This document shows, piece after piece, positions 1 to 63,905 of a stretch of DNA of 64,000 nucleotides. The notes under the pieces are model-generated. The model was not told the DNA's origin, made no database searches, and saw only the letters and a list, made by a program, of their open reading frames with translations. How positions within the stretch are numbered: position 1 is the stretch's first letter; every line of letters begins with the position of its first letter. The DNA lies in NCBI GenBank assembly GCA_963758295.1, contig CAVWUU010000001.1:288001-352000 (forward strand), given 5' to 3'. The translations under genes were made by a program, and so were the position numbers. This stretch comes from Candidatus Eremiobacteria bacterium. GTDB lineage: Bacteria; Vulcanimicrobiota; Vulcanimicrobiia; Vulcanimicrobiales; Vulcanimicrobiaceae.

Positions 1-342
1 CGATTTGATTCGAGCGAGGAGTTCCTGTTCCACGAACGGTTTGATGAGATAATCATCAGCGCCGCTGTCGAGGCCGTTCACGCGATCCTCAACGGCGTCA
101 CGCGCGGTGAGCATGAGAATCGGCGTCTGGATCTTGTTTTCTCGAGCGGCCTTGGTGATCTCGAACCCGTTGCGCTTCGGCAGTCCGATATCGACGATGG
201 CGGCATCGTAAATGCCCCGGAGCAGGTAGTCCAGACCGGTTTCACCGTCGTGCACGACGTCGACCGCGTACTTTCTCGATTCCAGCATCATACGAACGGC
301 GCCGGCAACGGGCAGGCTATCTTCGACGATCAGAATGCGCAT
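1..342 (-). CDS. OmpR/PhoB-family response regulator (N-terminal receiver domain; gene runs off the window edge)
   Basis: Manual translation from ATG at 342: MRILIVEDSLPVAGAVRMMLESRKYAVDVVHDG...IVDIGLP...ILMLTARDAVEDRVNGLDSGADDYLIKPF. Classic REC motifs. AAAGGA RBS upstream. Confidence 0.9.
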   Translation of the reverse strand, partial: MRILIVEDSLPVAGAVRMMLESRKYAVDVVHDGETGLDYLLRGIYDAAIVDIGLPKRNGFEITKAARENKIQTPILMLTARDAVEDRVNGLDSGADDYLIKPFVEQELLARIKS

Positions 343-356
343 CGATATTTCCTTTC

Positions 357-1484
357 TCATAGCTTCGGCGGCCAGGGGAATCCTACTGTCACCGCTCCGC
401 CGAAATGTCCGTCGCCGCCGATGGTTTGGACTTGTTGGAGCAAGAAGCGCGCGTGCGGCGTGATTTGGAAAGCGCCGTAGTAGACGATGTCACGCAGAAT
501 CGCGGGGTTTGCGGACGCGTCGTAGCGGATGCCGACGTACGAGTGGGGCGTGGGATAGAACTTCGCGCGAAGGTAGCCGCCGCTGCTCCCGACCGCCGTT
601 CCGAATCCGTCGGCGTCGGCGTCACGTCCGAACCATTGTTCGCCCTGCAATTCGAAGCGGCCGAACTGTGCTCGGGCATAGAGGCCGCCGCGCTCGTAGA
701 AATCGTCGAATTGGCGTCCGCCGGTCAGCAGGACGTTCCGGTCTCCTTCGAGCGCTTCGAAGCCGGCAGTGACGCCTTTGGCGATCGGACCGGAAACGAA
801 AAGACCGGCTTCCGGAGTAACGGCATTGCTCGTTTCACCGGTGGGAACGGGAATGCCGCCGTACGGTGCGCCTTTGAATTCGGCGAGGTCGGCAACGAGA
901 TGGATTTGTGTTTGGCCAACGGTGCGAAATGCCTCGACGCCCCAGCGCGGCGACGACAAAGGCAAATCGTTCAAGCCTACGTGCGTACCGTAATAGCCGT
1001 ACTGCTGCAAATCGTCAAGGCGCTGTCCCGGCGACTGCGGTAACGGCAGCTCGAAAAGTCCAAGACGATAAAGCGACTGGGTGTGCGCATTGTACGTCGC
1101 CACGTAGCCCATATAGAGCCCCGACGGACCGCCCGCGGCTCCCAAGTTGTAGTGTACGAACGCACTGATTTTCCCGATGTCCGCGTTGCTCAGGATTACG
1201 CCGCCGGGTTGAAACCGCCGCTGGCCCACCGGCGACTGTTCGTACTCAACTTGATAGCGCAGAGCTACAAGCGTAGTTCCGTGTTTAGGCGCAGGAAGCC
1301 GGTAGCCGTGGTCCCGGAACGAACGGCCGAAAGCATTCAGTTCGGGCAACACACTGTGGCATGCTTCGCATTGCAGCCGGTAACGTTGTGCGAAGATTGG
1401 AATTGCCTGCGCGCGTTGCATCGTCAGAACTTCAAAAAAAAGCGTGAAGTCCAAGAGCGCGATGAGTAGAGATCTATTGCGCAT
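357..1484 (-). CDS. Cyc2-like fused monoheme cytochrome c / outer-membrane beta-barrel protein
   Basis: Signal peptide, then AQA-IPIFAQRYRLQCEACHSVLPELNAFGRSFRDHGY, matching the Cyc2-type N-terminal pattern (PxFA..CxxCH..PxL..FGRxF..GY). The remainder has alternating amphipathic, aromatic-rich beta-strand character. Confidence 0.7.
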   Translation of the reverse strand: MRNRSLLIALLDFTLFFEVLTMQRAQAIPIFAQRYRLQCEACHSVLPELNAFGRSFRDHGYRLPAPKHGTTLVALRYQVEYEQSPVGQRRFQPGGVILSNADIGKISAFVHYNLGAAGGPSGLYMGYVATYNAHTQSLYRLGLFELPLPQSPGQRLDDLQQYGYYGTHVGLNDLPLSSPRWGVEAFRTVGQTQIHLVADLAEFKGAPYGGIPVPTGETSNAVTPEAGLFVSGPIAKGVTAGFEALEGDRNVLLTGGRQFDDFYERGGLYARAQFGRFELQGEQWFGRDADADGFGTAVGSSGGYLRAKFYPTPHSYVGIRYDASANPAILRDIVYYGAFQITPHARFLLQQVQTIGGDGHFGGAVTVGFPWPPKL

Positions 1485-1941
1485 CGATCTCGCCCCGCAT
1501 CATGCCGCTGTAGTGATAAAAGCAGCCGTAGAGATACACGCCGGGCCGATCTACGAGAAAGACCTGCGAGGTCTGGCCGGCCTGAAGCGATCCCGAACTC
1601 CAGCCTTGCGATGAGACGGTGTTGACCGAACTGGGAGACGTTGCCGAGAAGCCGAGCGGCGAAGCCTGCGGGAACGTAGTGCCCACCACCATCGAAGCGG
1701 TATGCACCGTGTTGTCAACGTTGACGAAGCGCACGCCGCTGCCCACAGGGACGGAAGAAACGTCGGGCGAGAACCCGAGGGCGAGACCCGCCGGTGTTTG
1801 CTGCGCGCCGAACGCCGATAAGCTGACGTCGATCGTAACGACGTTTGAAACGTTCTGGTTGCTTCCGCCTGCGGGCGTTACGCCGCCCGGCGTGCACGAT
1901 GCGACGGCCCAAACTAAAAGCGCTGCGACAAGACGCCTCAT
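1474..1941 (-). CDS. Cupredoxin (plastocyanin/azurin-like blue copper) lipoprotein
   Basis: Lipobox-like VASC. Upstream His (VHTAS) and C-terminal GVYLYGCFYHYSGMM supply the type-1 copper Cys-x2-His-x4-Met ligand set. Confidence 0.85.
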   Translation of the reverse strand: MRRLVAALLVWAVASCTPGGVTPAGGSNQNVSNVVTIDVSLSAFGAQQTPAGLALGFSPDVSSVPVGSGVRFVNVDNTVHTASMVVGTTFPQASPLGFSATSPSSVNTVSSQGWSSGSLQAGQTSQVFLVDRPGVYLYGCFYHYSGMMRGEIDAQ

Positions 1942-2474
1942 CGCGGCACCGCGCGAAAAACGTCATCGCTGAGGTCCGGCGAGGCAAGCAAGGTCTGCGC
2001 TAACTCGCCGCGAGCATTTAAGACGTAAACGAAGGTCGTATGCATTTCCGGAACTCCGTCGGAGCCGCGCTCCGCGACGACATTGAAGCGGCGCATGAGC
2101 GCGTGAATCGTTGAGGGATTGCCGCTCGCCAGCAGCCATCGCGGCGAACGGGCATCGAAGCGTTTTGCCAGCGCGCGCATTGTAGCGGGCGTATCGTGCT
2201 CCGGATCGAGCGTTAACGTGAGAAAGCGGACGTTCGCGGAGCGGGCTCGCGGATCGCGCGAAGCGGTTGCGATTTGTGCGTCGATCAGCGGACACGCATC
2301 GGTGCAGCGCGCGGCCACGAAGGTTACCACCACCGGCTCACCGCGCAGATCGTTCAGCGTAAACGCGTTGCCTTGCTGATCGATGAGCGGTTCTTGCGCC
2401 AATGCGCTCGGGGCAAGGACGGCGAGCGCTATTGTTGCTGCCGCCGTCCAAGCCATGCGATGAATCGCGAGCAC
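1938..2474 (-). CDS. SCO1/SenC family copper chaperone
   Basis: CTDAC (CxxxC) motif, TLDPEHDTP motif and conserved His (MHTT). N-terminal signal peptide. Confidence 0.9.
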   Translation of the reverse strand: MLAIHRMAWTAAATIALAVLAPSALAQEPLIDQQGNAFTLNDLRGEPVVVTFVAARCTDACPLIDAQIATASRDPRARSANVRFLTLTLDPEHDTPATMRALAKRFDARSPRWLLASGNPSTIHALMRRFNVVAERGSDGVPEMHTTFVYVLNARGELAQTLLASPDLSDDVFRAVPR

Positions 2475-2475
2475 G

Positions 2476-3015
2476 TTAGGGGTACGGATTGCCGCCGCCG
2501 CTGCCGCCCGTGCCGTTTCCGCCGCCGCCGGTGCCTGCGCCCTGCGCGGATGGACGTGCGGTTTGCCAAAGGCCGCCGAACTCGGTCAATCCGTTGCCCT
2601 TGTTGTCACCGGCGGCTTTGTCGCCGACGTACCCATACAGCGGCCAGCCGTTGAACGCCCATTGCAACGTTCCGTCGCTGCGCGTGATGAGCGTAAATCC
2701 GGCCGGCGCGACGGTTCCTGCGGGAGCCGTGTAAGGCGGCCAAACCCCGGTGCATCCGTTTGCACTCGAGCAGTTTGATTTGTTCGTGGTGTCCGCTTCG
2801 AAAAGGTACAGCGTCATGCCGCCGGACGTGACGAACCCGATCGAGCCGGCAACTTGCGCTTTTTGTGGGGTTGAAGCGGGCGTACCGCCGCCACCGCCCG
2901 GATTGTTGCCGCCCGGATTGGGGTTCACGCCTCCGCCGCCGCTGCTGCTTCCGCCGCCGCCGCATGCCGCCAGCGCAATGCACAGAACTACGCTCGGTAT
3001 AGTGAAAATTCGCAT
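2476..3015 (-). CDS. COG4315-type secreted-repeat lipoprotein (Lipoprotein_15)
   Basis: Lipobox LAAC, Gly-rich linkers, GMTLYLFEAD...C...C..VWPP and RSDGTLQWAFNGWPLYGYVGD...G...W repeats. GGAGG RBS. Confidence 0.85.
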   Translation of the reverse strand: MRIFTIPSVVLCIALAACGGGGSSSGGGGVNPNPGGNNPGGGGGTPASTPQKAQVAGSIGFVTSGGMTLYLFEADTTNKSNCSSANGCTGVWPPYTAPAGTVAPAGFTLITRSDGTLQWAFNGWPLYGYVGDKAAGDNKGNGLTEFGGLWQTARPSAQGAGTGGGGNGTGGSGGGNPYP

Positions 3016-3048
3016 GTGTGTTTCGAACCTCCAGATTGGTATGGCTCG

Positions 3049-3080
3049 AAACTACGCGGCACGTGTGAAAAAAGTATAAA
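3049..3080 (-). promoter_or_regulatory. Putative promoter of the lipoprotein-SCO-cupredoxin-cyc2-like operon, with 11-bp-spaced direct repeats
   Basis: AT-rich island in GC-rich DNA. Minus strand reads TTTATAC-n4-TTCACAC, followed 8 nt later by TAGTTT (-10-like). Confidence 0.35.
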
Positions 3081-3084
3081 TTTT

Positions 3085-3906
3085 TTAATGAGGAGCGGCG
3101 ATTGCGTCGCGCAATTGAATCGCAAGCTCGCGCAAAGACGAATCGTCCGTGGCGTCTTTTGCGGCGCGATCGAAGGCTGCCCGTGCGCCGGTGCGGTCGC
3201 CGTTATGCAGCAGCACGGTCCCCATTGCAAATCGCGCGCGTGCGTATGCCGGGGAAAGTTGCACGGCCGCGGTAAATTCGCGAAGCGCTTCGGCAAAATG
3301 CCCGCTCTGTGATTCGGCAACGCCCAAGTCGTAGTGCGCTACGGCGTATTGAGGATCGTTTTGCAGCAACTTCGAAAAATCTGCGCGTGCCGTTGCCGGA
3401 TCGCCGCCGTGCAAGGCGACCAGACCTCGCGAATAGAGCGCCCGGGCCGAATCGGGTGCGATCGCGATGAAGCGATCGGCGATTTTTCGCGCATCCGCCA
3501 AATCCCCGCTTGCAAGATCGACCGCGATAAGATTAGCCATTGCCGCGAGAAAACCGGGATCAAGATCGAGCGCGCGATGAAGCGACTGCGACGCGCCGGT
3601 ATTTTCACCAAGCTGCGCCTGCGCGATCGCTAGATCATACCATGCACTCGAGCCTTCCGGCTCGGGCGGATTCATCGCAACGGTTGCGAGGAATTCCGCG
3701 CGCGCTTTGTTCCAATCGCGCGCATCGATCGCGGCGAGGCCGATGTGAAATCGCTCGGCGGCTGCGCGCGCAACGGCTTGCCGGCGCAATTCAGGAATCG
3801 ACGTTGTGGAAGGAAGCGGTTTAGCCGTTTCGTACTGCGCGCGCGCGTTTACGAGGTTCGCGCCGACAGCTAGAGCGAAGACCGCAATCGTGAGTGAGAA
3901 ACGCAT
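3085..3906 (-). CDS. Secreted tetratricopeptide-repeat protein
   Basis: Start reassigned to MRFSLTIAVF (signal peptide). Multiple TPR units, e.g. AWYDLAIAQAQLG, AHYDLGVAESQSG. Confidence 0.85.
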   Translation of the reverse strand: MRFSLTIAVFALAVGANLVNARAQYETAKPLPSTTSIPELRRQAVARAAAERFHIGLAAIDARDWNKARAEFLATVAMNPPEPEGSSAWYDLAIAQAQLGENTGASQSLHRALDLDPGFLAAMANLIAVDLASGDLADARKIADRFIAIAPDSARALYSRGLVALHGGDPATARADFSKLLQNDPQYAVAHYDLGVAESQSGHFAEALREFTAAVQLSPAYARARFAMGTVLLHNGDRTGARAAFDRAAKDATDDSSLRELAIQLRDAIAAPH

Positions 3907-3910
3907 GCGT

Positions 3911-4168
3911 TTAATGCGAATCGACCAAGGGCAAATCCGCGCCGGTCGCAGACTTCGCGGCCGCCGCCTTTTCGGGCTTGCACTCCCATCCGACGCGGCC
4001 TTTTTCGTTGATCGGACCGAGTAGCGCCGGCGTGTCGGACGGCAGCAGGGCGTTCGCGTCAATCGTGCTCACCGATCCCGCGGCGGCAAAGCCCGCGCGC
4101 AGACTTGCCGCTCCGAGAAGCAGCAAGCCGGCTAACATGATTCGGGAAAGGGCACGCCTTGACATCAC
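3911..4168 (-). CDS. Small hypothetical exported protein
   Basis: 85-aa ORF with signal-peptide-like N-terminus that fills the gap before the TPR gene. TATAAT immediately upstream. Confidence 0.6.
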   Translation of the reverse strand: MMSRRALSRIMLAGLLLLGAASLRAGFAAAGSVSTIDANALLPSDTPALLGPINEKGRVGWECKPEKAAAAKSATGADLPLVDSH

Positions 4169-4198
4169 CTCGATTATAGCCCAAGTTCTGAAGAATCG

Positions 4199-5920
4199 AT
4201 GAACCGCGCTGCCGTCTTGTTGCTCGGGCTAGCGTTGCTGGGCGATGCGCCCCAGGCTTCGGCCCTCATTGCCGGGACGGTGCGGGACCAGCACGGCTCG
4301 CCGGTGGTCGCTGCCCGAGTTGCTCTCTTTTCCGGCGGCAAAGAGGTCGCCCGCGCTGTGTCGGCCTCCGACGGGACGTTCGCGGTTACCGGCGTGCCGG
4401 CCGATGCGGCGAGCATCGACTGCGATTTCTGCGAGCCCGTGCGTAAAACGATCCCGGACGACGGGATTTTGGTCGTGTTCGTACGGCGTAACGACGCCGT
4501 GACGAGCCGTTCTCCAACCCACGCGGACGTTGCCGCATTGCCGTACGCGTACGTCGAATCAACGCTCTCGCTCACGCCGTTCGTGGTTCTTAGCCAGTCG
4601 GCACGTCTTTATCCCGGTCCGCAACTCAGCGACCGGCGCAATTCTGGGACCGGCGGTCTTTTCGTCCTCAACGGCGTTCCGGATTACGATATCTCCGCCA
4701 ATATCTCGCCGTATCTTACGATTCCCGAACGCGATTTTTCGGACGTTTCGATCCAGCGCTCGAGCGATGCATACCTCTATGGTGACACGTCCAATGCCGG
4801 AACGTTCGTTGCGAGTACTACCGATGGATCGCCCTTTGCCTCCGCCGGGAGTGGGGTCGCATTTCGCGCGGCTCAAGCCGATCCAGCACTGCAGAGCAGT
4901 GCGGCGGTTTCAGACGACCGCGGCAGCGACGATCGCACGCGTGCCGACGGCAACGTGTCACTTGCGGTGCCGAACGGCTTGGTGAACGCGACGCTCGGGG
5001 CTGGACAGATCGACGCTTCGTCCGGCGCTGCGACGCTCGACTCGGAATTTTCTTCCGTGCGACTGTCCGTGCAACGCACGAGCGGCGTCGATATTACCGG
5101 CTCGTTAGTAGCGGATCGCGGAACGTATTCTTACGACTCGCCCGTGTACGACGAGGAAAGCACGTGGAGCGACGTCGACGCGCGCGGATTGATTCGTTCG
5201 CACGCGGACGTAGCGCCGTTCGCTTTGGTCGAGTTCCGGCGAAGTACGGCCCAAAGCACGCTCGGCCAAGCGCGCTTCGAAACGGGGTTCGCGATCGACC
5301 GTCCACATTGGAACGTCGTCGCAGCGCTAGGGAGCGACCAAGTTTCGTACGCGCCGTATGCCGGCGCCCCGGGAGCCCGAACGACGACGCACGACGACGT
5401 GTTTTCAACTGCATGGACGCCATCATCAAACATGTCGTGGGAGGCCAGCGTATCGAACGGCTACGTGCTGCCGGTCTTTACTTCGCTTTACGCTCCGCAG
5501 TCGCGGGCGCCGTACGTCCCATCGAATGCGACGCTCGAGTCGACGCTAACGTTGAGCGACGCACGCCGCGCACGATTCGAACTGACGGCGTTGCGTTTTA
5601 CGAGCGAAGGCGGTGAGGCTAGCGGAAGCGCGGGTGCATCGTTGGCGTGGCAGTTCACGCCGCAATTGAGCGTGCGTACATGGCTGCTTCGGATTGCCGA
5701 CAACGAGCAAGGCGCCGCCGCGGTCGGCTCGACCTGGTTCACCTACGATACCGGTGCATTGCGTATCGACGCCATCGTTCGGCGCGATTTGCGCGATTCG
5801 CAAGCCGACGCGCATCTCGATTTTTCCGTTTCCGGAAATATCAGTGGCCGGTTGCGCTGGTTCGCCGGATCGGAACGACGCAACGGCAGCCGTGCCGTCG
5901 ATGCGGGGCTACGGCTTTGA
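4199..5920 (+). CDS. Outer-membrane beta-barrel with carboxypeptidase-regulatory-like N-domain (divergent TonB-dependent receptor-like)
   Basis: Signal peptide; IAGTVRDQHGSPVVAARV..SDGTF domain; plug-like VLNGVP...YLYGD motif; C-terminal beta-signal-like AGLRL. Confidence 0.65.
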   Translation: MNRAAVLLLGLALLGDAPQASALIAGTVRDQHGSPVVAARVALFSGGKEVARAVSASDGTFAVTGVPADAASIDCDFCEPVRKTIPDDGILVVFVRRNDAVTSRSPTHADVAALPYAYVESTLSLTPFVVLSQSARLYPGPQLSDRRNSGTGGLFVLNGVPDYDISANISPYLTIPERDFSDVSIQRSSDAYLYGDTSNAGTFVASTTDGSPFASAGSGVAFRAAQADPALQSSAAVSDDRGSDDRTRADGNVSLAVPNGLVNATLGAGQIDASSGAATLDSEFSSVRLSVQRTSGVDITGSLVADRGTYSYDSPVYDEESTWSDVDARGLIRSHADVAPFALVEFRRSTAQSTLGQARFETGFAIDRPHWNVVAALGSDQVSYAPYAGAPGARTTTHDDVFSTAWTPSSNMSWEASVSNGYVLPVFTSLYAPQSRAPYVPSNATLESTLTLSDARRARFELTALRFTSEGGEASGSAGASLAWQFTPQLSVRTWLLRIADNEQGAAAVGSTWFTYDTGALRIDAIVRRDLRDSQADAHLDFSVSGNISGRLRWFAGSERRNGSRAVDAGLRL

Positions 5921-6201
5921 TTCGAGCCAGTAGTAGTTGCGCATAATTTCGTCAGCCCATTGCGGCCGGCGCGCGGCGGTTTCGACATCGTCTTGGCTCA
6001 TTTCACGTAACTAAAAGATCACTGCGAGGTGCGAAAGCCCGACCGGTGTCAAGGTGACCGGCTGAAGTTTTTCCATAGTTGCTATTCCGAGAATGACGAG
6101 AGAAAGGAGCGTTCCGCCGATGTAGTGACCGCTCTGCGTTGCGAAGATCCCGTCGAGCAACATATAGCCGCCGGCAAGCAATGCGCATAGCCGTGAAATG
6201 G

Positions 6202-6230
6202 AACGGCCCGCCGGATTCCGGCGGGCCGTT
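6202..6230. terminator. GC-rich hairpin just downstream of pnp (probable intrinsic terminator)
   Basis: Perfect 13-bp inverted repeat AACGGCCCGCCGG-att-CCGGCGGGCCGTT, 8 nt after the pnp stop. Confidence 0.7.
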
Positions 6231-6238
6231 TTGGCGAG

Positions 6239-8518
6239 TTAGTCGTCGCGACGTCCTTGTGGACGGCGGCGGCGGCGCATCGGCGGTGCACCTTCGCCTT
6301 CAGGAGCGGGGCTTGCGTTTTCGCGCGGTGGGCCTGAATCTTCGCGCGATTCACGGCGCGGACGGAATTCGCCGTTGCCGCTGGGGCGCGCGCCGTTTTC
6401 ACCGCCGGCCAGCAGCGCCTTGTGAGAAAGATTCAAGCGTCCTTGCCCGTCGACTTCCATCACTTTGACTTCCAGCGAGTCGCCGACGTTGACGACGTCT
6501 TCAACCTTGCCGACGCGTTCGAGCGCGAGCTGGCTGATGTGGACGAGGCCTTCCTTGCCGGGAAGAATCTCGACGAACGCGCCGATCGGAATGATCCGTT
6601 TGACGGTTCCGTTGTACCTCTCGCCGACCACCACGTCTTTGGTGATGTTTTCGACGATCGTCTTGGCTTTATCGCCGCTTTCACCGTCGAGTGACGTGAT
6701 GAAGACGGTGCCGTCGTCCTCGATGTCGATCTTTTCGACGCCGGTGTCTTGGATGATCTTGTTGATGACCTTGCCGCCTGGCCCGATCACGTCCTTGATC
6801 TTGTCCGGGTTGATCTTGATGACGATCATGCGCGGCGCGAACTTCGAGAGTTCCTTACGCGGCTCGGAGATCGACTCGTTGAGCTTTTCGATGATGAAGA
6901 AGCGCGATTTTTTCGCCTCGGTCATCGCTTCGCGCATGATGTCGACCGTGATGCCCTGGACTTTGATGTCCATCTGAATCGCGGTGATGCCCTTCTTAGT
7001 GCCCGCGACCTTGAAGTCCATCTCACCGAGCGCGTCTTCCATGCCTTGAATGTCCGTCAGGATCGCGTATTGCTTTCCTTTGAGAATCAAGCCCATCGCG
7101 ACGCCCGCGACGTGTTCTTTGATCGGTACGCCGGCGTCCATCAGCGCGAGCGACGAACCGCAGACCGACGCCATTGAAGATGAGCCGTTGGACTCGAGCA
7201 CTTCGCTCATCAAACGCAGCGTGTACGGGAACTCTTCCTTCGGCGGGAGCACCGGGATGAGCGCACGCTCCGCGAGCGCTCCGTGACCGATCTCGCGCCG
7301 GCCGGGGCCCCGCATCGGACGCGTTTCCCCGACCGAGAAGGGCGGGAAGTTGTAGAAGTGCATGTAGCGCTTGTCTTCGAGCGCGACGATGCCGTCCAAG
7401 CGCTGCGCATCGCTCGTCGAACCGAGCGTTGCGGCGGTGAAGACCTGCGTCTGTCCACGTGTGAAAACGCCCGAACCGTGAACGCGCGGCACGTAGTGCA
7501 CCTTCGTCCAAATCGGCCGGATTTCGTCGGGCTTGCGGCCGTCGGGACGAATTTTTTCGTCGACGACCATCGTGCGAAGCTCGTCTTCTTGCATGCCTTT
7601 GATGATCTTCGAGAAGTCTTTGCCGTAGGCGCCGCTCTCGAGCATCGTCTTGATTTCTTCGTCTTTTTTGCCGCAACGCGCGATCGCTTCGTCGACGCTG
7701 AGGGCGCCGAGTGCGTCCTCGCGCGCGTGCTTCTCTACTACGCGCATCGCTTTGGCGACGTCTTTGACGAACGTCTTGCGCACCCACTTCTCGAGGTCGG
7801 CGTTGACCTTGCGAAGCGGATATTCGCGCTTGGCTTTACCGGTTTTTTTCGCGAGCTGATCGATCGCTTTGACGATCTTCTTGATTTCGTTATGTGCGAA
7901 CTCGACGGCACCGAGGAACTCTTCCTCGGAGATTTCGTCGCCGCCGCCTTCGACCATCATCACTGCGTCGGCCGTGCCGGCGATGATGATGTCCATTCCG
8001 CCGGTTACATACTGCGGAAGCGTGGGGTTGCAGATGTAGTTGCCGTCTTCATCGCGGCCTACGCGCACTGCGGCAACCGTCTTATCGAACGGAATGTCGG
8101 AGAAGGCTAAGGCTGCGCCCGCTGCACAAACGCCGAGCACGTCGGCATCAAGTTCGGGATCGATCGAAAGCACCGTCGCGACGATTTGCACGTCGTTGTG
8201 GAAGCCTTCGGGGAAGAGGGGACGGATCGGGCGGTCGATTTGACGCGAGCTGAGCACGGCGTGCTCGGGCGGACGCCCTTCGCGCTTGATGTAGCCGCCG
8301 GGAATTTTGCCCGCAGCATACATCTTTTCTTCGAAGTCACACGTGAGTGGGAAAAAGTCGATGCCTTCACGAGGCTTCTCGGAGGCAGTGACGGCGCAGA
8401 GCACGACATTTTGGTCGCCATAGCGGATCAGCGCGGAGCCGTTTGCTTGCTTCGCGAGTTCGCCGGTTTCGATGACCATCGTGCGCCCGCCGACCGTAAG
8501 GGTCACGGATTCGGGCAC
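6239..8518 (-). CDS. pnp: Polyribonucleotide nucleotidyltransferase (PNPase)
   Basis: ETGELAKQANG, FFPLT, RREIGHG, SEVLESNGSSSMAS, DFKVAG motifs plus KH and S1 domains. GTG start with AGGAG RBS. Confidence 0.98.
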   Translation of the reverse strand: MPESVTLTVGGRTMVIETGELAKQANGSALIRYGDQNVVLCAVTASEKPREGIDFFPLTCDFEEKMYAAGKIPGGYIKREGRPPEHAVLSSRQIDRPIRPLFPEGFHNDVQIVATVLSIDPELDADVLGVCAAGAALAFSDIPFDKTVAAVRVGRDEDGNYICNPTLPQYVTGGMDIIIAGTADAVMMVEGGGDEISEEEFLGAVEFAHNEIKKIVKAIDQLAKKTGKAKREYPLRKVNADLEKWVRKTFVKDVAKAMRVVEKHAREDALGALSVDEAIARCGKKDEEIKTMLESGAYGKDFSKIIKGMQEDELRTMVVDEKIRPDGRKPDEIRPIWTKVHYVPRVHGSGVFTRGQTQVFTAATLGSTSDAQRLDGIVALEDKRYMHFYNFPPFSVGETRPMRGPGRREIGHGALAERALIPVLPPKEEFPYTLRLMSEVLESNGSSSMASVCGSSLALMDAGVPIKEHVAGVAMGLILKGKQYAILTDIQGMEDALGEMDFKVAGTKKGITAIQMDIKVQGITVDIMREAMTEAKKSRFFIIEKLNESISEPRKELSKFAPRMIVIKINPDKIKDVIGPGGKVINKIIQDTGVEKIDIEDDGTVFITSLDGESGDKAKTIVENITKDVVVGERYNGTVKRIIPIGAFVEILPGKEGLVHISQLALERVGKVEDVVNVGDSLEVKVMEVDGQGRLNLSHKALLAGGENGARPSGNGEFRPRRESREDSGPPRENASPAPEGEGAPPMRRRRRPQGRRDD

Positions 8519-8608
8519 GGTTACTCCTAGATTTTTCTAAGTTGCTCTTTTTTATGAACCGTGCCCGGTTCGGGAAGGCGCCGCGCTGCCCCTGGTTTGG
8601 GGATGGCG

Positions 8609-61725: not shown

Positions 61726-63210
61726 TTAGGGAACGTCGGCGGCTTTGACGGCCGAAGCCTTGTTGTTGCCGATCGAGCCGCGGATGTAACTAACGACGTC
61801 CGCGATGTCCTTTTTCGAGAGGCTGGCTTTCCACGGCGGCATTTGCGCGCCGTAGGTTTGACCCATTACGGCTTGTCCGTGCAGACCGTTTTCGACGACG
61901 TTGATCACGGCTTTCGGATTGCCGGTCACGAACGGATTGTTCGCAAGCGGCGGAGCGACGCTGGGCTGGCCTTGGCCCGTCGCGCCGTGGCAGCTCGAAC
62001 AATTGGTCGCAAAGACGTGCGAGCCGTTGGCGTTCTCGGAAGCGGCACCGCCGCCGCCGGCAACCACCGGGCCCGTGCCGTTGCTTTCGCCGCCCGAATT
62101 CGTCGTCGCGGCGAGAACTTGGCTCTCGCTTTGCGACGGCGGTCCGGCCGCGATCTTCGATTGAATGTTGGCCTGCGCGTAGAACGACAGACCTACAATC
62201 GCGACGAGGATGATGGTCGTGATCAGCAAGATCGCGGCGCGCGATGCGAACGAACGCGTCAAGCTGCGATCGAGCCACGGAAGCAGCAGCACCACGATGA
62301 TGCCGATCGTCGGCACGATGATGGCCGCGAGCAGTTCCGGGAACGGACCATTGCCGAGGAAGAGCGGTACGAGGTTCAGCAAGCCGAACAGCGACAAGAA
62401 ATACCACGCCGGATACGGCACGAACTGCGAGTTCGTGGGATCGGCCTTGGCGTCGAGGAACGGCGGAGCGATGAACGCGAGCGCGATGATGATCAGGAAT
62501 ACGACGAACGACGCGAACGCATCCATGAACATCTGATCCGGCCAGAAACGTCCGGGGCGCAGTTCGCGCGGGTCGCGCGCAACCGGGCCGGCCGGGCCGT
62601 TGTGGCGGAAGATTGCGAGGTGAGCGCCCACGAGCGCAACGAGCGCTGCGGGCATCAGCCACACGTGCAAGCCGAAGAAGCGATTGATGGTGTTGGTGCC
62701 CATCGTTCCGCCGCCCTGCGCGATGTTCTGCAGGAGGCCGCCGCCCGGCGGAAGACCCGCGATGTTTAGCGACACCTGCGATGCGAAGTACGCGTCCATG
62801 TCCCACGGCAACAGGTAGCCGGTGAGACCGAGAACGAGCGTTACGACGAAGAGCAGAATGCCGACGATCCACTGCAGTTCGCGCGGCGATTTATATGCGC
62901 CCCAAACCAGCACTTGAAGCAAATGCAGGAAGACCAGCGCGATCATCGCCGACGCGCCCCAGTAGTGAACCGAGAGCAAGAAGTGCGTGAACGGATTGAG
63001 ATAAATTGCGCGCGTCGATTCCCATGCCGTAGCGGCCGAGGGCGCGTAGAAGAACGTTAGGAAAATACCGGTCGTAATCTGCAGGATCATCGCGAACAAA
63101 GTCGCGCTGCCGAAGACATACCAATAGCTAGCGCCGCCCGGGATATCTTCCGTAAGGAAGTCCTTCGCCATCGAGAGGAACCCAGTGCGTGATTCGATCC
63201 AGTTAAGCAT
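61726..63210 (-). CDS. Rieske/cyt b complex cytochrome b subunit fused to subunit-IV-like region and C-terminal cytochrome c
   Basis: YVFGS, Q..TG.FL..FY.P, VHYWGAS...LH, PREL.W..G, TGYLLPWD, RFFGLH...H, P.WYF, then CSSCHG...MP. Start ATG 63210 with AAGGAAGG RBS. Confidence 0.93.
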   Translation of the reverse strand: MLNWIESRTGFLSMAKDFLTEDIPGGASYWYVFGSATLFAMILQITTGIFLTFFYAPSAATAWESTRAIYLNPFTHFLLSVHYWGASAMIALVFLHLLQVLVWGAYKSPRELQWIVGILLFVVTLVLGLTGYLLPWDMDAYFASQVSLNIAGLPPGGGLLQNIAQGGGTMGTNTINRFFGLHVWLMPAALVALVGAHLAIFRHNGPAGPVARDPRELRPGRFWPDQMFMDAFASFVVFLIIIALAFIAPPFLDAKADPTNSQFVPYPAWYFLSLFGLLNLVPLFLGNGPFPELLAAIIVPTIGIIVVLLLPWLDRSLTRSFASRAAILLITTIILVAIVGLSFYAQANIQSKIAAGPPSQSESQVLAATTNSGGESNGTGPVVAGGGGAASENANGSHVFATNCSSCHGATGQGQPSVAPPLANNPFVTGNPKAVINVVENGLHGQAVMGQTYGAQMPPWKASLSKKDIADVVSYIRGSIGNNKASAVKAADVP

Positions 63211-63227
63211 CGTGTTCGGATCCTTCC

Positions 63228-63905
63228 TTACGATTGGTACGAGATGACGACGCGATCCGGCTGGGAGGCTTTGTAGCGGACCCACATGATTTCAGCGGCT
63301 CCGTTCGCTTCGCGCAACGGCAACGGATCGAGACCGCGTGGCGCCGGTCCGGCGAGATGTTCGCCGTCGATATTGAACTGCGATCCATGGCACGGGCACG
63401 CGAACTTGTTGCCGCTGTCGTCCCACAAGAAACGGCATCCGAGATGCGGGCAAATCGGGCTGAAGATAACGAAGTTCATATTGACGACGTTGTAGTCGAC
63501 GTCGGCCTTGCCGTTCACGTAAAGATCGGGGCGCGCTTTTTCGAATGCCGACTGATCGGCGACTTTGATGCCCCAGACGTATTCCTGAGACGTCTGCTCC
63601 GGAAGATACGAATCTTTGGACTTCAAGTTGAACGTAAGCTTAACGGGCTTGTCCGTCGCGGTCTGCAGCTCTTTGAGCTCGTCGGCGGTGAGCGGTGCCC
63701 AGTTTCCCGAGCCGCTGCCGCCCGTCGGCAGCAGTGAACCGACGATCGGGATCACGAGCCCGACGCCAATGATGCCGCTAAGCGTCAGCGTCGCTTTGGC
63801 CATGAACGACCGCCGGCTGATTTCCTCAGCCGTGCCCGGGTCGTCGTAGGCACTAAGAATTTTACGCGAGCCGCCTTCAAACGCGCCCGCAGCTTGTTTG
63901 GACAA
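63228..63905 (-). CDS. Rieske iron-sulfur subunit of quinol:cytochrome c reductase
   Basis: Tat-like SRRSFM plus TM helix; CPHLGC and CPCHGSQF boxes; GPAPRGL. TTG start with GGAGAG RBS. Confidence 0.93.
   Translation of the reverse strand: MSKQAAGAFEGGSRKILSAYDDPGTAEEISRRSFMAKATLTLSGIIGVGLVIPIVGSLLPTGGSGSGNWAPLTADELKELQTATDKPVKLTFNLKSKDSYLPEQTSQEYVWGIKVADQSAFEKARPDLYVNGKADVDYNVVNMNFVIFSPICPHLGCRFLWDDSGNKFACPCHGSQFNIDGEHLAGPAPRGLDPLPLREANGAAEIMWVRYKASQPDRVVISYQS

Follow-up and report, generated by a model that had tools for sequence, protein, structure and literature searches.

Cyc2, the iron-oxidising cytochrome-porin, has been described as a 16-strand OprO/OprP-like barrel with an N-terminal haem and the motif PXFAR[Q/K][T/Y], and cluster 3 has been singled out as the Cyc2 cluster of most uncertain function (Keffer et al. 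2021). In Acidithiobacillus, cyc2 belongs to the rus operon, which has the order cyc2-cyc1-cup-coxBACD-rus (PMC10654088) and whose blue copper protein, rusticyanin, has the ligands Cys138, His143 and Met148 (Cys-x4-His-x4-Met). Cyc2 homologues serve as markers of iron oxidation, including in the Eremiobacterota, where Cyc2-like genes with a proposed role in iron oxidation have already been published (PMC8357290, PMC13594681); in the article describing the cultured representative, the main text leaves Cyc2 unmentioned (PMC9758169). Here we describe a locus at the left end of a 64,000-nucleotide stretch of a Candidatus Eremiobacteria genome (GCA_963758295.1, contig CAVWUU010000001.1, positions 288,001 to 352,000; the whole stretch is referred to as the window), in which a Cyc2-like monohaem cytochrome-porin is encoded next to a cupredoxin lipoprotein. 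A first-pass annotation of the window had read five genes at 1-3090 as a candidate outer-membrane electron conduit under two-component control.

The envelope redox module is real, conserved and regulated, and iron lithotrophy is unlikely for it; whether its operon encodes an inducible envelope electron conduit leading from haem to copper we judge to be about evenly balanced. Full-length orthologues of the porin (E <= 2e-51) were found in 92 of the 201 genomes of the phylum, with a partial copy in one more. All carriers are among the 132 genomes of the class (92/132), and the other 69 genomes of the phylum have none. The 92 include this genome (G000) and one unpublished genome (G128), the latter entering the carrier count and the RuBisCO comparison only, and synteny was read in 48 loci from the 91 carriers other than G128. 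The linkage with a cupredoxin gene that had been expected in relatives is present in 48/48 of these loci, directly upstream of the porin gene and across three families (one cupredoxin gene is frameshifted and one lies at a contig end). Around this pair, the two-component genes and the TPR gene each occur in 37/48 loci, the divergent TonB-receptor-like gene in 35/48, the small gene in 33/48, SCO in 32/48 (25 of them at the same position and strand), a second type of cupredoxin lipoprotein in 20/48 and the PF03640 lipoprotein in 6/48, giving one to three cupredoxins per locus. With the COG4315 gene in six loci and SCO in 32, the five-gene set as first proposed is not a conserved unit. The conserved core is the porin and the cupredoxin, its sole partner retained in every arrangement; in the most distant family, all ten loci have that pair alone. 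What is new here is a regulon of exported proteins marked by a direct-repeat box, together with a testable proposal of a cytochrome-f-like N-terminal haem ligand; a search of the open literature returned no paper on the porin-cupredoxin pairing, none on the direct-repeat box and none linking Cyc2 to an N-terminal amine haem ligand.

The porin was modelled with AlphaFold2 from an alignment of 148 sequences. The model (pLDDT, the predicted value of the local distance difference test, 93) comprises a small helical CxxCH domain, a barrel of 16 strands and a short additional strand, in line with the barrel with N-terminal haem domain that had been predicted. Foldseek returned porins throughout, and a wide structural search placed OprP (2o4v) at the top (Z 23.3, root-mean-square deviation 3.1, 284 aligned; next row 22.0). 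By sequence, there was no NCBIfam hit at E up to 1, Pfam gave weak Porin_O_P and Cytochrom_C matches, and PDB sequence searches gave no significant match, the N-terminus matching OmhA (6qvm) weakly at E 0.49, a protein that the accessible portions of PMC7829351 and PMC9250108 do not tie to any ligand. The 375-aa precursor lies above the Cyc2 length limit of at least 365 aa. A single CxxCH at mature positions 12-16 is invariant across the 148 aligned sequences, and the signal-peptide Ala at -1 as well as P20 and L22, the PxL four residues past CxxCH, are found in 49/49 orthologues. The CxxCH and PxL of the N-terminal motif reported initially are borne out; the stretch before CxxCH reads AIPIFAQRY in the window as against the published AXPXFAR[Q/K][T/Y]. 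Orthologues have FAQRY (40/49) or FAERY (9/49), and the strict PXFAR[Q/K][T/Y] occurs in 0/49 orthologues and 0/119 database homologues. A co-fold of porin, haem and cupredoxin scored 0.01 (mark 0.32) and bears neither way.

The reference set for placing the porin was obtained by a FARQTG motif scan of named genomes, which gave at least 121 stretches, 80 of them with flanks, and 67 full-length proteins were used; cluster labels were assigned by taxon, and the characterised Cyc2 proteins themselves are absent from the set. In the main tree of 168 sequences, which includes 25 of the 49 orthologues, 43 of the 54 paralogues, all 67 references and no Cyt572 sequence, the references form one clade (support 1.0) that contains the Zetaproteobacteria/Gallionellaceae group and an Acidithiobacillus sequence and no orthologue. 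The orthologues form their own clade (support 1.0) on the opposite side of the tree, among FARKY-type proteins, and a 45-sequence IQ-TREE run agrees, grouping 19 references at an ultrafast bootstrap of 100 without the window porin. The porin thus falls outside both the cluster-1 and the cluster-2 reference groups. FARKY is the motif of Cyt572; the FARKY-type neighbours were collected with the porin query itself, and the high scores against them are partly circular. Since two FARQY paralogues nest inside the sister clade of the orthologues, the FAQRY/FAERY deviation looks derived. The haem domains of orthologues and references match by hhalign at a probability of 96-98%. We place the porin as a Cyc2-like build, probably on the cluster-3 side, and as modelled it is a distant relative of iron-oxidising Cyc2 with Cyc2 architecture; it is not filed as a member of the Cyc2 family because the strict motif fails.

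The ligands of the cupredoxin, His65, Cys125, His128 and Met133 of the mature chain, are invariant in 48 aligned orthologues, and its fold is plastocyanin-like, the top matches by fold including plastocyanin, pseudoazurin, auracyanin and AcoP. Fold and ligand set (His, Cys, His, Met) are those of a type-1 copper cupredoxin, and copper binding is predicted accordingly from these residues; the score against PF00127 (18.7 bits) is below the 21.2 cut-off. Rusticyanin was ruled out as its identity by the ligand loop, which is Cys-x2-His-x4-Met (x3 spacing in 3 distant loci) rather than Cys-x4-His-x4-Met. The likeness to the Acidithiobacillus rus operon drawn in the first-pass annotation finds no support: the cupredoxin is not rusticyanin, Cyc1 and oxidase genes are unlinked, the porin lies outside the reference sets for the two clusters to which Cyc2PV-1 and A. 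ferrooxidans Cyc2 belong, and the carriers mostly lack RuBisCO. Genes for cyc1/coxBACD did not recur around the 48 loci, whose surroundings were read over ~6 kb on each side where the contig allowed. One Acidithiobacillus cyc2 fetched for comparison (L136 572-3707) is followed by two dihaem cytochrome genes, with no oxidase within the stretch fetched.

Porin paralogues were read in 52 loci among the matches listed, with 190 further matches beyond those. YceI stands directly behind the paralogue in 29/30 loci of one clade, followed in 5 of these by a multicopper oxidase, and a multicopper oxidase stands behind the paralogue in 13/22 other loci, nearly all with a lipoprotein-type N-terminus and one being a 75-aa remnant; SCO also adjoins paralogues, as do multicopper oxidases. 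Run on the 80 reference loci, the same queries gave 3 weak hits to cupredoxins, 1 to YceI and none to a multicopper oxidase, and for this reason the pairing of Cyc2-like porins with exported partners looks, from gene neighbourhoods, particular to this lineage. That each paralogous clade has its own exported partner speaks for an electron conduit of the envelope. The genome studied here has a second Cyc2-like gene of FAHRY type (G000 C1 674340-675725; L080 5641-7092) next to DUF1800/DUF1501, behind which a multicopper oxidase is reduced to its last 75 aa; DUF1800/DUF1501 genes are repeatedly seen close to Cyc2-like genes belonging to two different clades (L071, L074, L076-L079, L080, L088). Further Cyc2-like types were seen (L093 1739-3408, L101 1684-3431, L275 650-2097, L128 3421-6474), of which one is followed by a monohaem cytochrome c, one lies behind a cupredoxin and has the box, and one, 638 aa long and resembling P0224 (with added cytochrome c domains), precedes a small multicopper oxidase. 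P0122 and P0125 look like fusions of cupredoxin and porin, but both are missing the copper-ligand end and retain a signal peptide internally, and they were taken as frameshift artefacts.

The small gene and the receptor-like gene are 33 bp apart; two 11-bp direct repeats and a TATAAT in this gap align in 22 relatives, and one half-site overlaps the start codon of the receptor-like gene. This overlap prompted a held-out test, in which sites were scored with a model trained on other sites. The box of the window at 4173-4203, outside the training set, received the top score in the whole genome. A box also lies within 170 nt after the TPR gene in 11/37 loci versus 1/777 controls; the remaining 26/37 have none there, and in some of these it lies one gene further on. 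Many weak genome hits of the model overlap start codons. That the box is a mere ribosome site and start codon of the divergent gene was rejected on held-out copies where the start codon is absent. Across 34 hand-picked genomes, the exact 16-nt pattern has 117 matches versus 7 for the reversed pattern, ~36 of the 117 lying at the operon itself, whose sites shaped the pattern, and it is present in 23/26 carriers and 1/8 non-carriers. Of ~81 off-operon sites 65 were read; 60/65 lie outside called genes and 43/65 have a same-strand start 10-250 nt downstream. The targets read are mostly exported and include propeller-type and unclassified lipoproteins, stand-alone PF03640 genes, HiPIP (3), AhpC/TSA (2 by Pfam, a third by likeness), cupredoxins, YceI and two other Cyc2-like genes; no copper ATPase, copper efflux or carbon-fixation gene is among them.

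Binding of the box by the regulator is predicted from the regulator family and from co-occurrence, and the two-component control proposed at the outset gains from the kinase now found, from a box at two promoters and from a regulon that co-occurs with the carriers. The best NCBIfam models for regulator and kinase are RppA/RppB, both below cut-off. Against the CusRS/CopRS models TIGR01387/TIGR01386 they reach 185 vs 279 bits and 112 vs 293 bits. In the kinase, two hydrophobic stretches flank a ~25-aa loop, in which an alignment of 31 kinases shows no His, Met or Cys to be conserved, and a CusS-type sensor was rejected on the low score and the short loop without a metal ligand. No sigma-70 consensus promoter was found in L001 9900-16000, a range that stops short of the 4173-4203 site. 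Among individual sites, HiPIP genes lie directly behind a box in three genomes (L259 366-644, L286 347-619, L289 329-601). Within G000, exact matches precede a 132-aa exported protein (C2 266140), homologues of which stand beside the divergon in L040, L045 and L047, and a 392-aa lipoprotein (C1 266424), and another falls between genes in a series that encodes large exported proteins (C3 154133).

All five minus-strand open reading frames (ORFs) of the first-pass annotation are present where it had put them, separated by one 1-nt gap and overlaps of 4, 11 and 4 nt, and their identities as COG4315 lipoprotein, SCO, cupredoxin, CxxCH protein and OmpR-family regulator are borne out by Pfam matches and motifs (Table 1). 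The proposed limits of 1-3090 enclose these five genes and are too narrow for the unit, which reaches past both ends with a kinase, the TPR gene, the small gene and the divergent TonB-receptor-like gene as extra members. The names of close homologues, as well as atlas clusters, place the host in the Eremiobacterota (Vulcanimicrobiota). The regulator is truncated by the left window edge, and the cognate kinase sought beyond that edge is there, its gene overlapping that of the regulator. The product of the small gene has no Pfam or NCBIfam match. The TonB-receptor-like protein has atlas neighbours with Plug and CarboxypepD_reg (score 0.93), to be read as a lead only. No Rfam match was found in window 1-8600.

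Table 1. Features of the porin-cupredoxin locus (window coordinates; contig coordinates where marked C1)
Feature	Position	Strand	Details
Histidine kinase, 305 aa	G000 C1 286760-287677, past left window edge, after regulator		PF00512+PF02518
OmpR-family response regulator, 5' half	1..360	-	Full gene 228 aa, G000 C1 287674-288360; PF00072+PF00486
Cyc2-like monohaem cytochrome-porin, 375 aa	357..1484	-	Predicted mature start 1403; CxxCH 1356-1370
Type-1 copper cupredoxin lipoprotein	1474..1941	-	Lipobox VASC; His...Cys-x2-His-x4-Met
SCO/SenC copper chaperone	1938..2474	-	PF02630 75.5 bits, E 5e-21; CxxxC + His in sequence
PF03640 (COG4315-type) lipoprotein, variable slot	2476..3015	-	78 bits, cut-off 24.4
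Second direct-repeat box copy, upstream of PF03640 lipoprotein gene	3059..3080	-	Score 14.1, exact pattern match
Exported TPR protein	3085..3906	-	Pfam TPR families
84-aa small gene, hydrophobic N-terminus, probable first gene of transcript	3911..4165	-	
Conserved promoter	4173..4203	-	Two 11-bp direct repeats 4182-4203, then TATAAT -10 element 4173-4178
Divergent TonB-dependent-receptor-like outer-membrane protein, 573 aa	4199..5920	+	PF13620 over cut-off; start codon inside box

In cytochrome f, the haem is bound by the N-terminal amine. An Ala stands 12 residues before the first Cys of the porin, whose predicted mature start is 11 before, in 49/49 orthologues, and the same position is Ala in 15/15 and 50/52 references, 52/54 paralogues and 31/33 distant hits; for references and paralogues the Pro-to-Cys spacing is fixed by selection, and the Ala was not selected. 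Cyt572 has been Edman-sequenced from the same N-terminal position (PMC13741234). No second His/Met column of at least 70% exists in the cluster-1 references or the FARKY set, and the cluster-2 references have one Met at 87%. The orthologues have His41, His84 and His287 (mature numbering) at 92, 80 and 96%, none of them common to the paralogues, and His41 is a real rival to the amine as sixth haem ligand. In a cluster-1 Cyc2, electron paramagnetic resonance (EPR) indicates two axial haem ligands; their assignment by the authors to His or Met (PMC13692758) weakens the amine idea, and published AlphaFold 3 models of Cyc2 have one axial ligand only. We tentatively put the chance that the N-terminal amine is the sixth haem ligand in this porin clade at somewhat less than even. 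A broader proposal, doubtful when taken as a whole, is that the Eremiobacterota have expanded Cyc2-like porins into several clades, every one connected to a periplasmic acceptor of its own (type-1 cupredoxin, multicopper oxidase or YceI), that this clade would be the outer-membrane counterpart of cytochrome f/plastocyanin, with the free N-terminal amine after signal-peptide cleavage as sixth ligand (and as second axial ligand of Cyc2 generally), and that the two-component regulon would switch on copper-based electron uptake in abundant, mostly RuBisCO-lacking soil bacteria.

As a conduit, the module would work as follows. A small dissolved reductant would enter the 16-strand pore and give up one electron to a c-type haem plugged at the periplasmic side; homology makes Fe(II) the first guess for this substrate, and Mn(II) or reduced organic shuttles could also serve. 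The haem would reduce the lipid-anchored type-1 cupredoxin, its copper loaded by SCO, and the cupredoxin would pass the electron to a haem-copper oxidase and so to oxygen. The direction, oxidation of the substrate, is suggested by the oxygen-reducing (multicopper oxidase) partners of the paralogues. Through the direct-repeat box, the two-component pair would activate the operon transcript along with further exported proteins. Genes for CcsA, ResB and haem-copper oxidase subunit I (three loci, one of them in pieces) are present in the genome, none of them linked to the operon, and make such a haem-to-oxygen route possible. Full-length RuBisCO was found in 7/92 carriers vs 11/39 non-carriers of the class, a comparison that is a description and not a test, the genomes being related and 44 carriers belonging to one genus, and RuBisCO was not found in this 82%-complete genome. 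Its presence in few carriers (7/92) argues against a lithoautotrophic core role, and the role in these mostly RuBisCO-lacking bacteria would be accessory, either mixotrophic or protective. In this genome, ResB (G000 C1 354771-356010) and the haem-copper oxidase subunit I by cbb3-like cytochrome genes (C4 410916-412148) are each in pieces, which suggests frameshift errors in the assembly. At window 61729-63905 (-), a cytochrome b-like gene (494 aa, one CxxCH) adjoins a Rieske-like gene, both labelled from reading the sequence, and CcsA and ResB follow just past the right window edge.

Several points weigh against a haem-to-copper conduit. When the first 45 residues are cut, the barrels of orthologues and of cluster-1/cluster-2 references score ~0 bits (hhalign E 0.14 and 0.07), while those of the cluster-1 and cluster-2 sets still match each other (E 2e-14). 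The signal peptide of the window porin (1404-1484, -) is atypical, with Asp and Glu within the hydrophobic stretch beside a run of eight T; an acidic residue occurs there in 2/104 relatives. It may be a real variant or an assembly error, and four DNA sequencing runs gave only short or diverged pieces over it. The majority of box targets are exported and have no known role in redox chemistry, and no oxidase subunit is among those read. Finally, a lipid-anchored cupredoxin would have to reach an oxidase in the inner membrane.

Cupredoxins also assist iron uptake in systems of the FtrABCD kind, and the module could likewise serve redox-coupled metal acquisition or handling, in which porin and cupredoxin, along with the TonB-receptor-like protein, would oxidise or reduce iron or copper so that the metal can be taken up or buffered. 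The one to three cupredoxins with SCO per locus, the receptor-like gene at the same promoter region in 35/48 loci and the SCO and multicopper oxidases beside paralogues would all fit, but the loci have no inner-membrane permease in common, a conserved metal ligand is absent from the kinase loop, regulator and kinase fall far below the CusR/CusS-type cut-offs, and the box targets read include no copper ATPase or efflux gene, so that we regard metal handling as unlikely. No copper ATPase over cut-off was found in this incomplete genome. Alternatively, haem-porin and cupredoxin might inform the kinase of the envelope's redox state, the regulon being an envelope-stress response. A kinase with a short periplasmic loop and no sensor domain of its own, and a regulon dominated by exported lipoproteins and including peroxiredoxin-family genes, are what such sensing or protection would predict; its probability is quite low, as the porin-cupredoxin pair occurs without two-component genes in 11/48 loci, including all 10 of the most distant family.

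A dedicated Fe(II) respiration like that of Acidithiobacillus, driving lithotrophic growth, is the least probable of the explanations considered. It would account for the Cyc2 architecture of the porin, and mine-site Eremiobacterota genomes have been called putative iron oxidisers (PMC8357290, PMC13594681). However, RuBisCO is rarer in carriers than in non-carriers and was not found here, cyc1/cox genes are unlinked, unlike in the rus operon, and the porin lies outside the cluster-1 and cluster-2 references, and probably nearer the cluster whose function Keffer et al. call most uncertain. Iron-oxidation calls from this clade, which covers 92/132 genomes of the class, mostly without RuBisCO, should therefore not count as lithotrophy; the Eremiobacterota are common soil bacteria, and our analysis gives no sign that they live on iron. 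With its fixed redox partner, the porin clade lends itself to defined tests of that side of the Cyc2 family which is least understood, and the predicted regulator box points to the inducing condition.

Sites of OmpR/PhoB-family regulators typically consist of two half-sites 11 bp apart, and the box has the same layout, here just upstream of the -10 element; no NCBIfam equivalog exceeds its cut-off for the window regulator, and the box was matched to no described regulator. With Mariprofundus Cyc2PV-1, Ghiorsea Cyc2TAG1_1, A. ferrooxidans Cyc2 and Leptospirillum Cyt572, the porin has in common a signal peptide, a single N-terminal CxxCH, the PxL and a 16-strand OprP-like barrel. It differs from the Cyc2 references in a shorter mature chain (348-362 aa in the clade vs 376-491 aa), in FAQRY/FAERY instead of FAR[QK][TY], in its separate, fully supported clade and in its fixed cupredoxin partner, where 3/80 reference loci have a weak cupredoxin hit. 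As in the rus operon, a cytochrome-porin is encoded together with a cupredoxin; the rus operon has the dihaem Cyc1 and coxBACD, whereas this locus lacks those and has SCO and a two-component pair, and its cupredoxin, unlike rusticyanin, is a lipoprotein with the loop Cys-x2-His-x4-Met. From cytochrome f the porin differs in fold and membrane, and it has no Pfam cytochrome f match. Its mature N-terminus, IPIFAQRY, has five consecutive residues in common with that of Arabidopsis cytochrome f (YPIFAQQNY; PMC2291561), a likeness that may be convergence or chance, and its partner, like that of cytochrome f, is plastocyanin-like in both fold and ligand loop.

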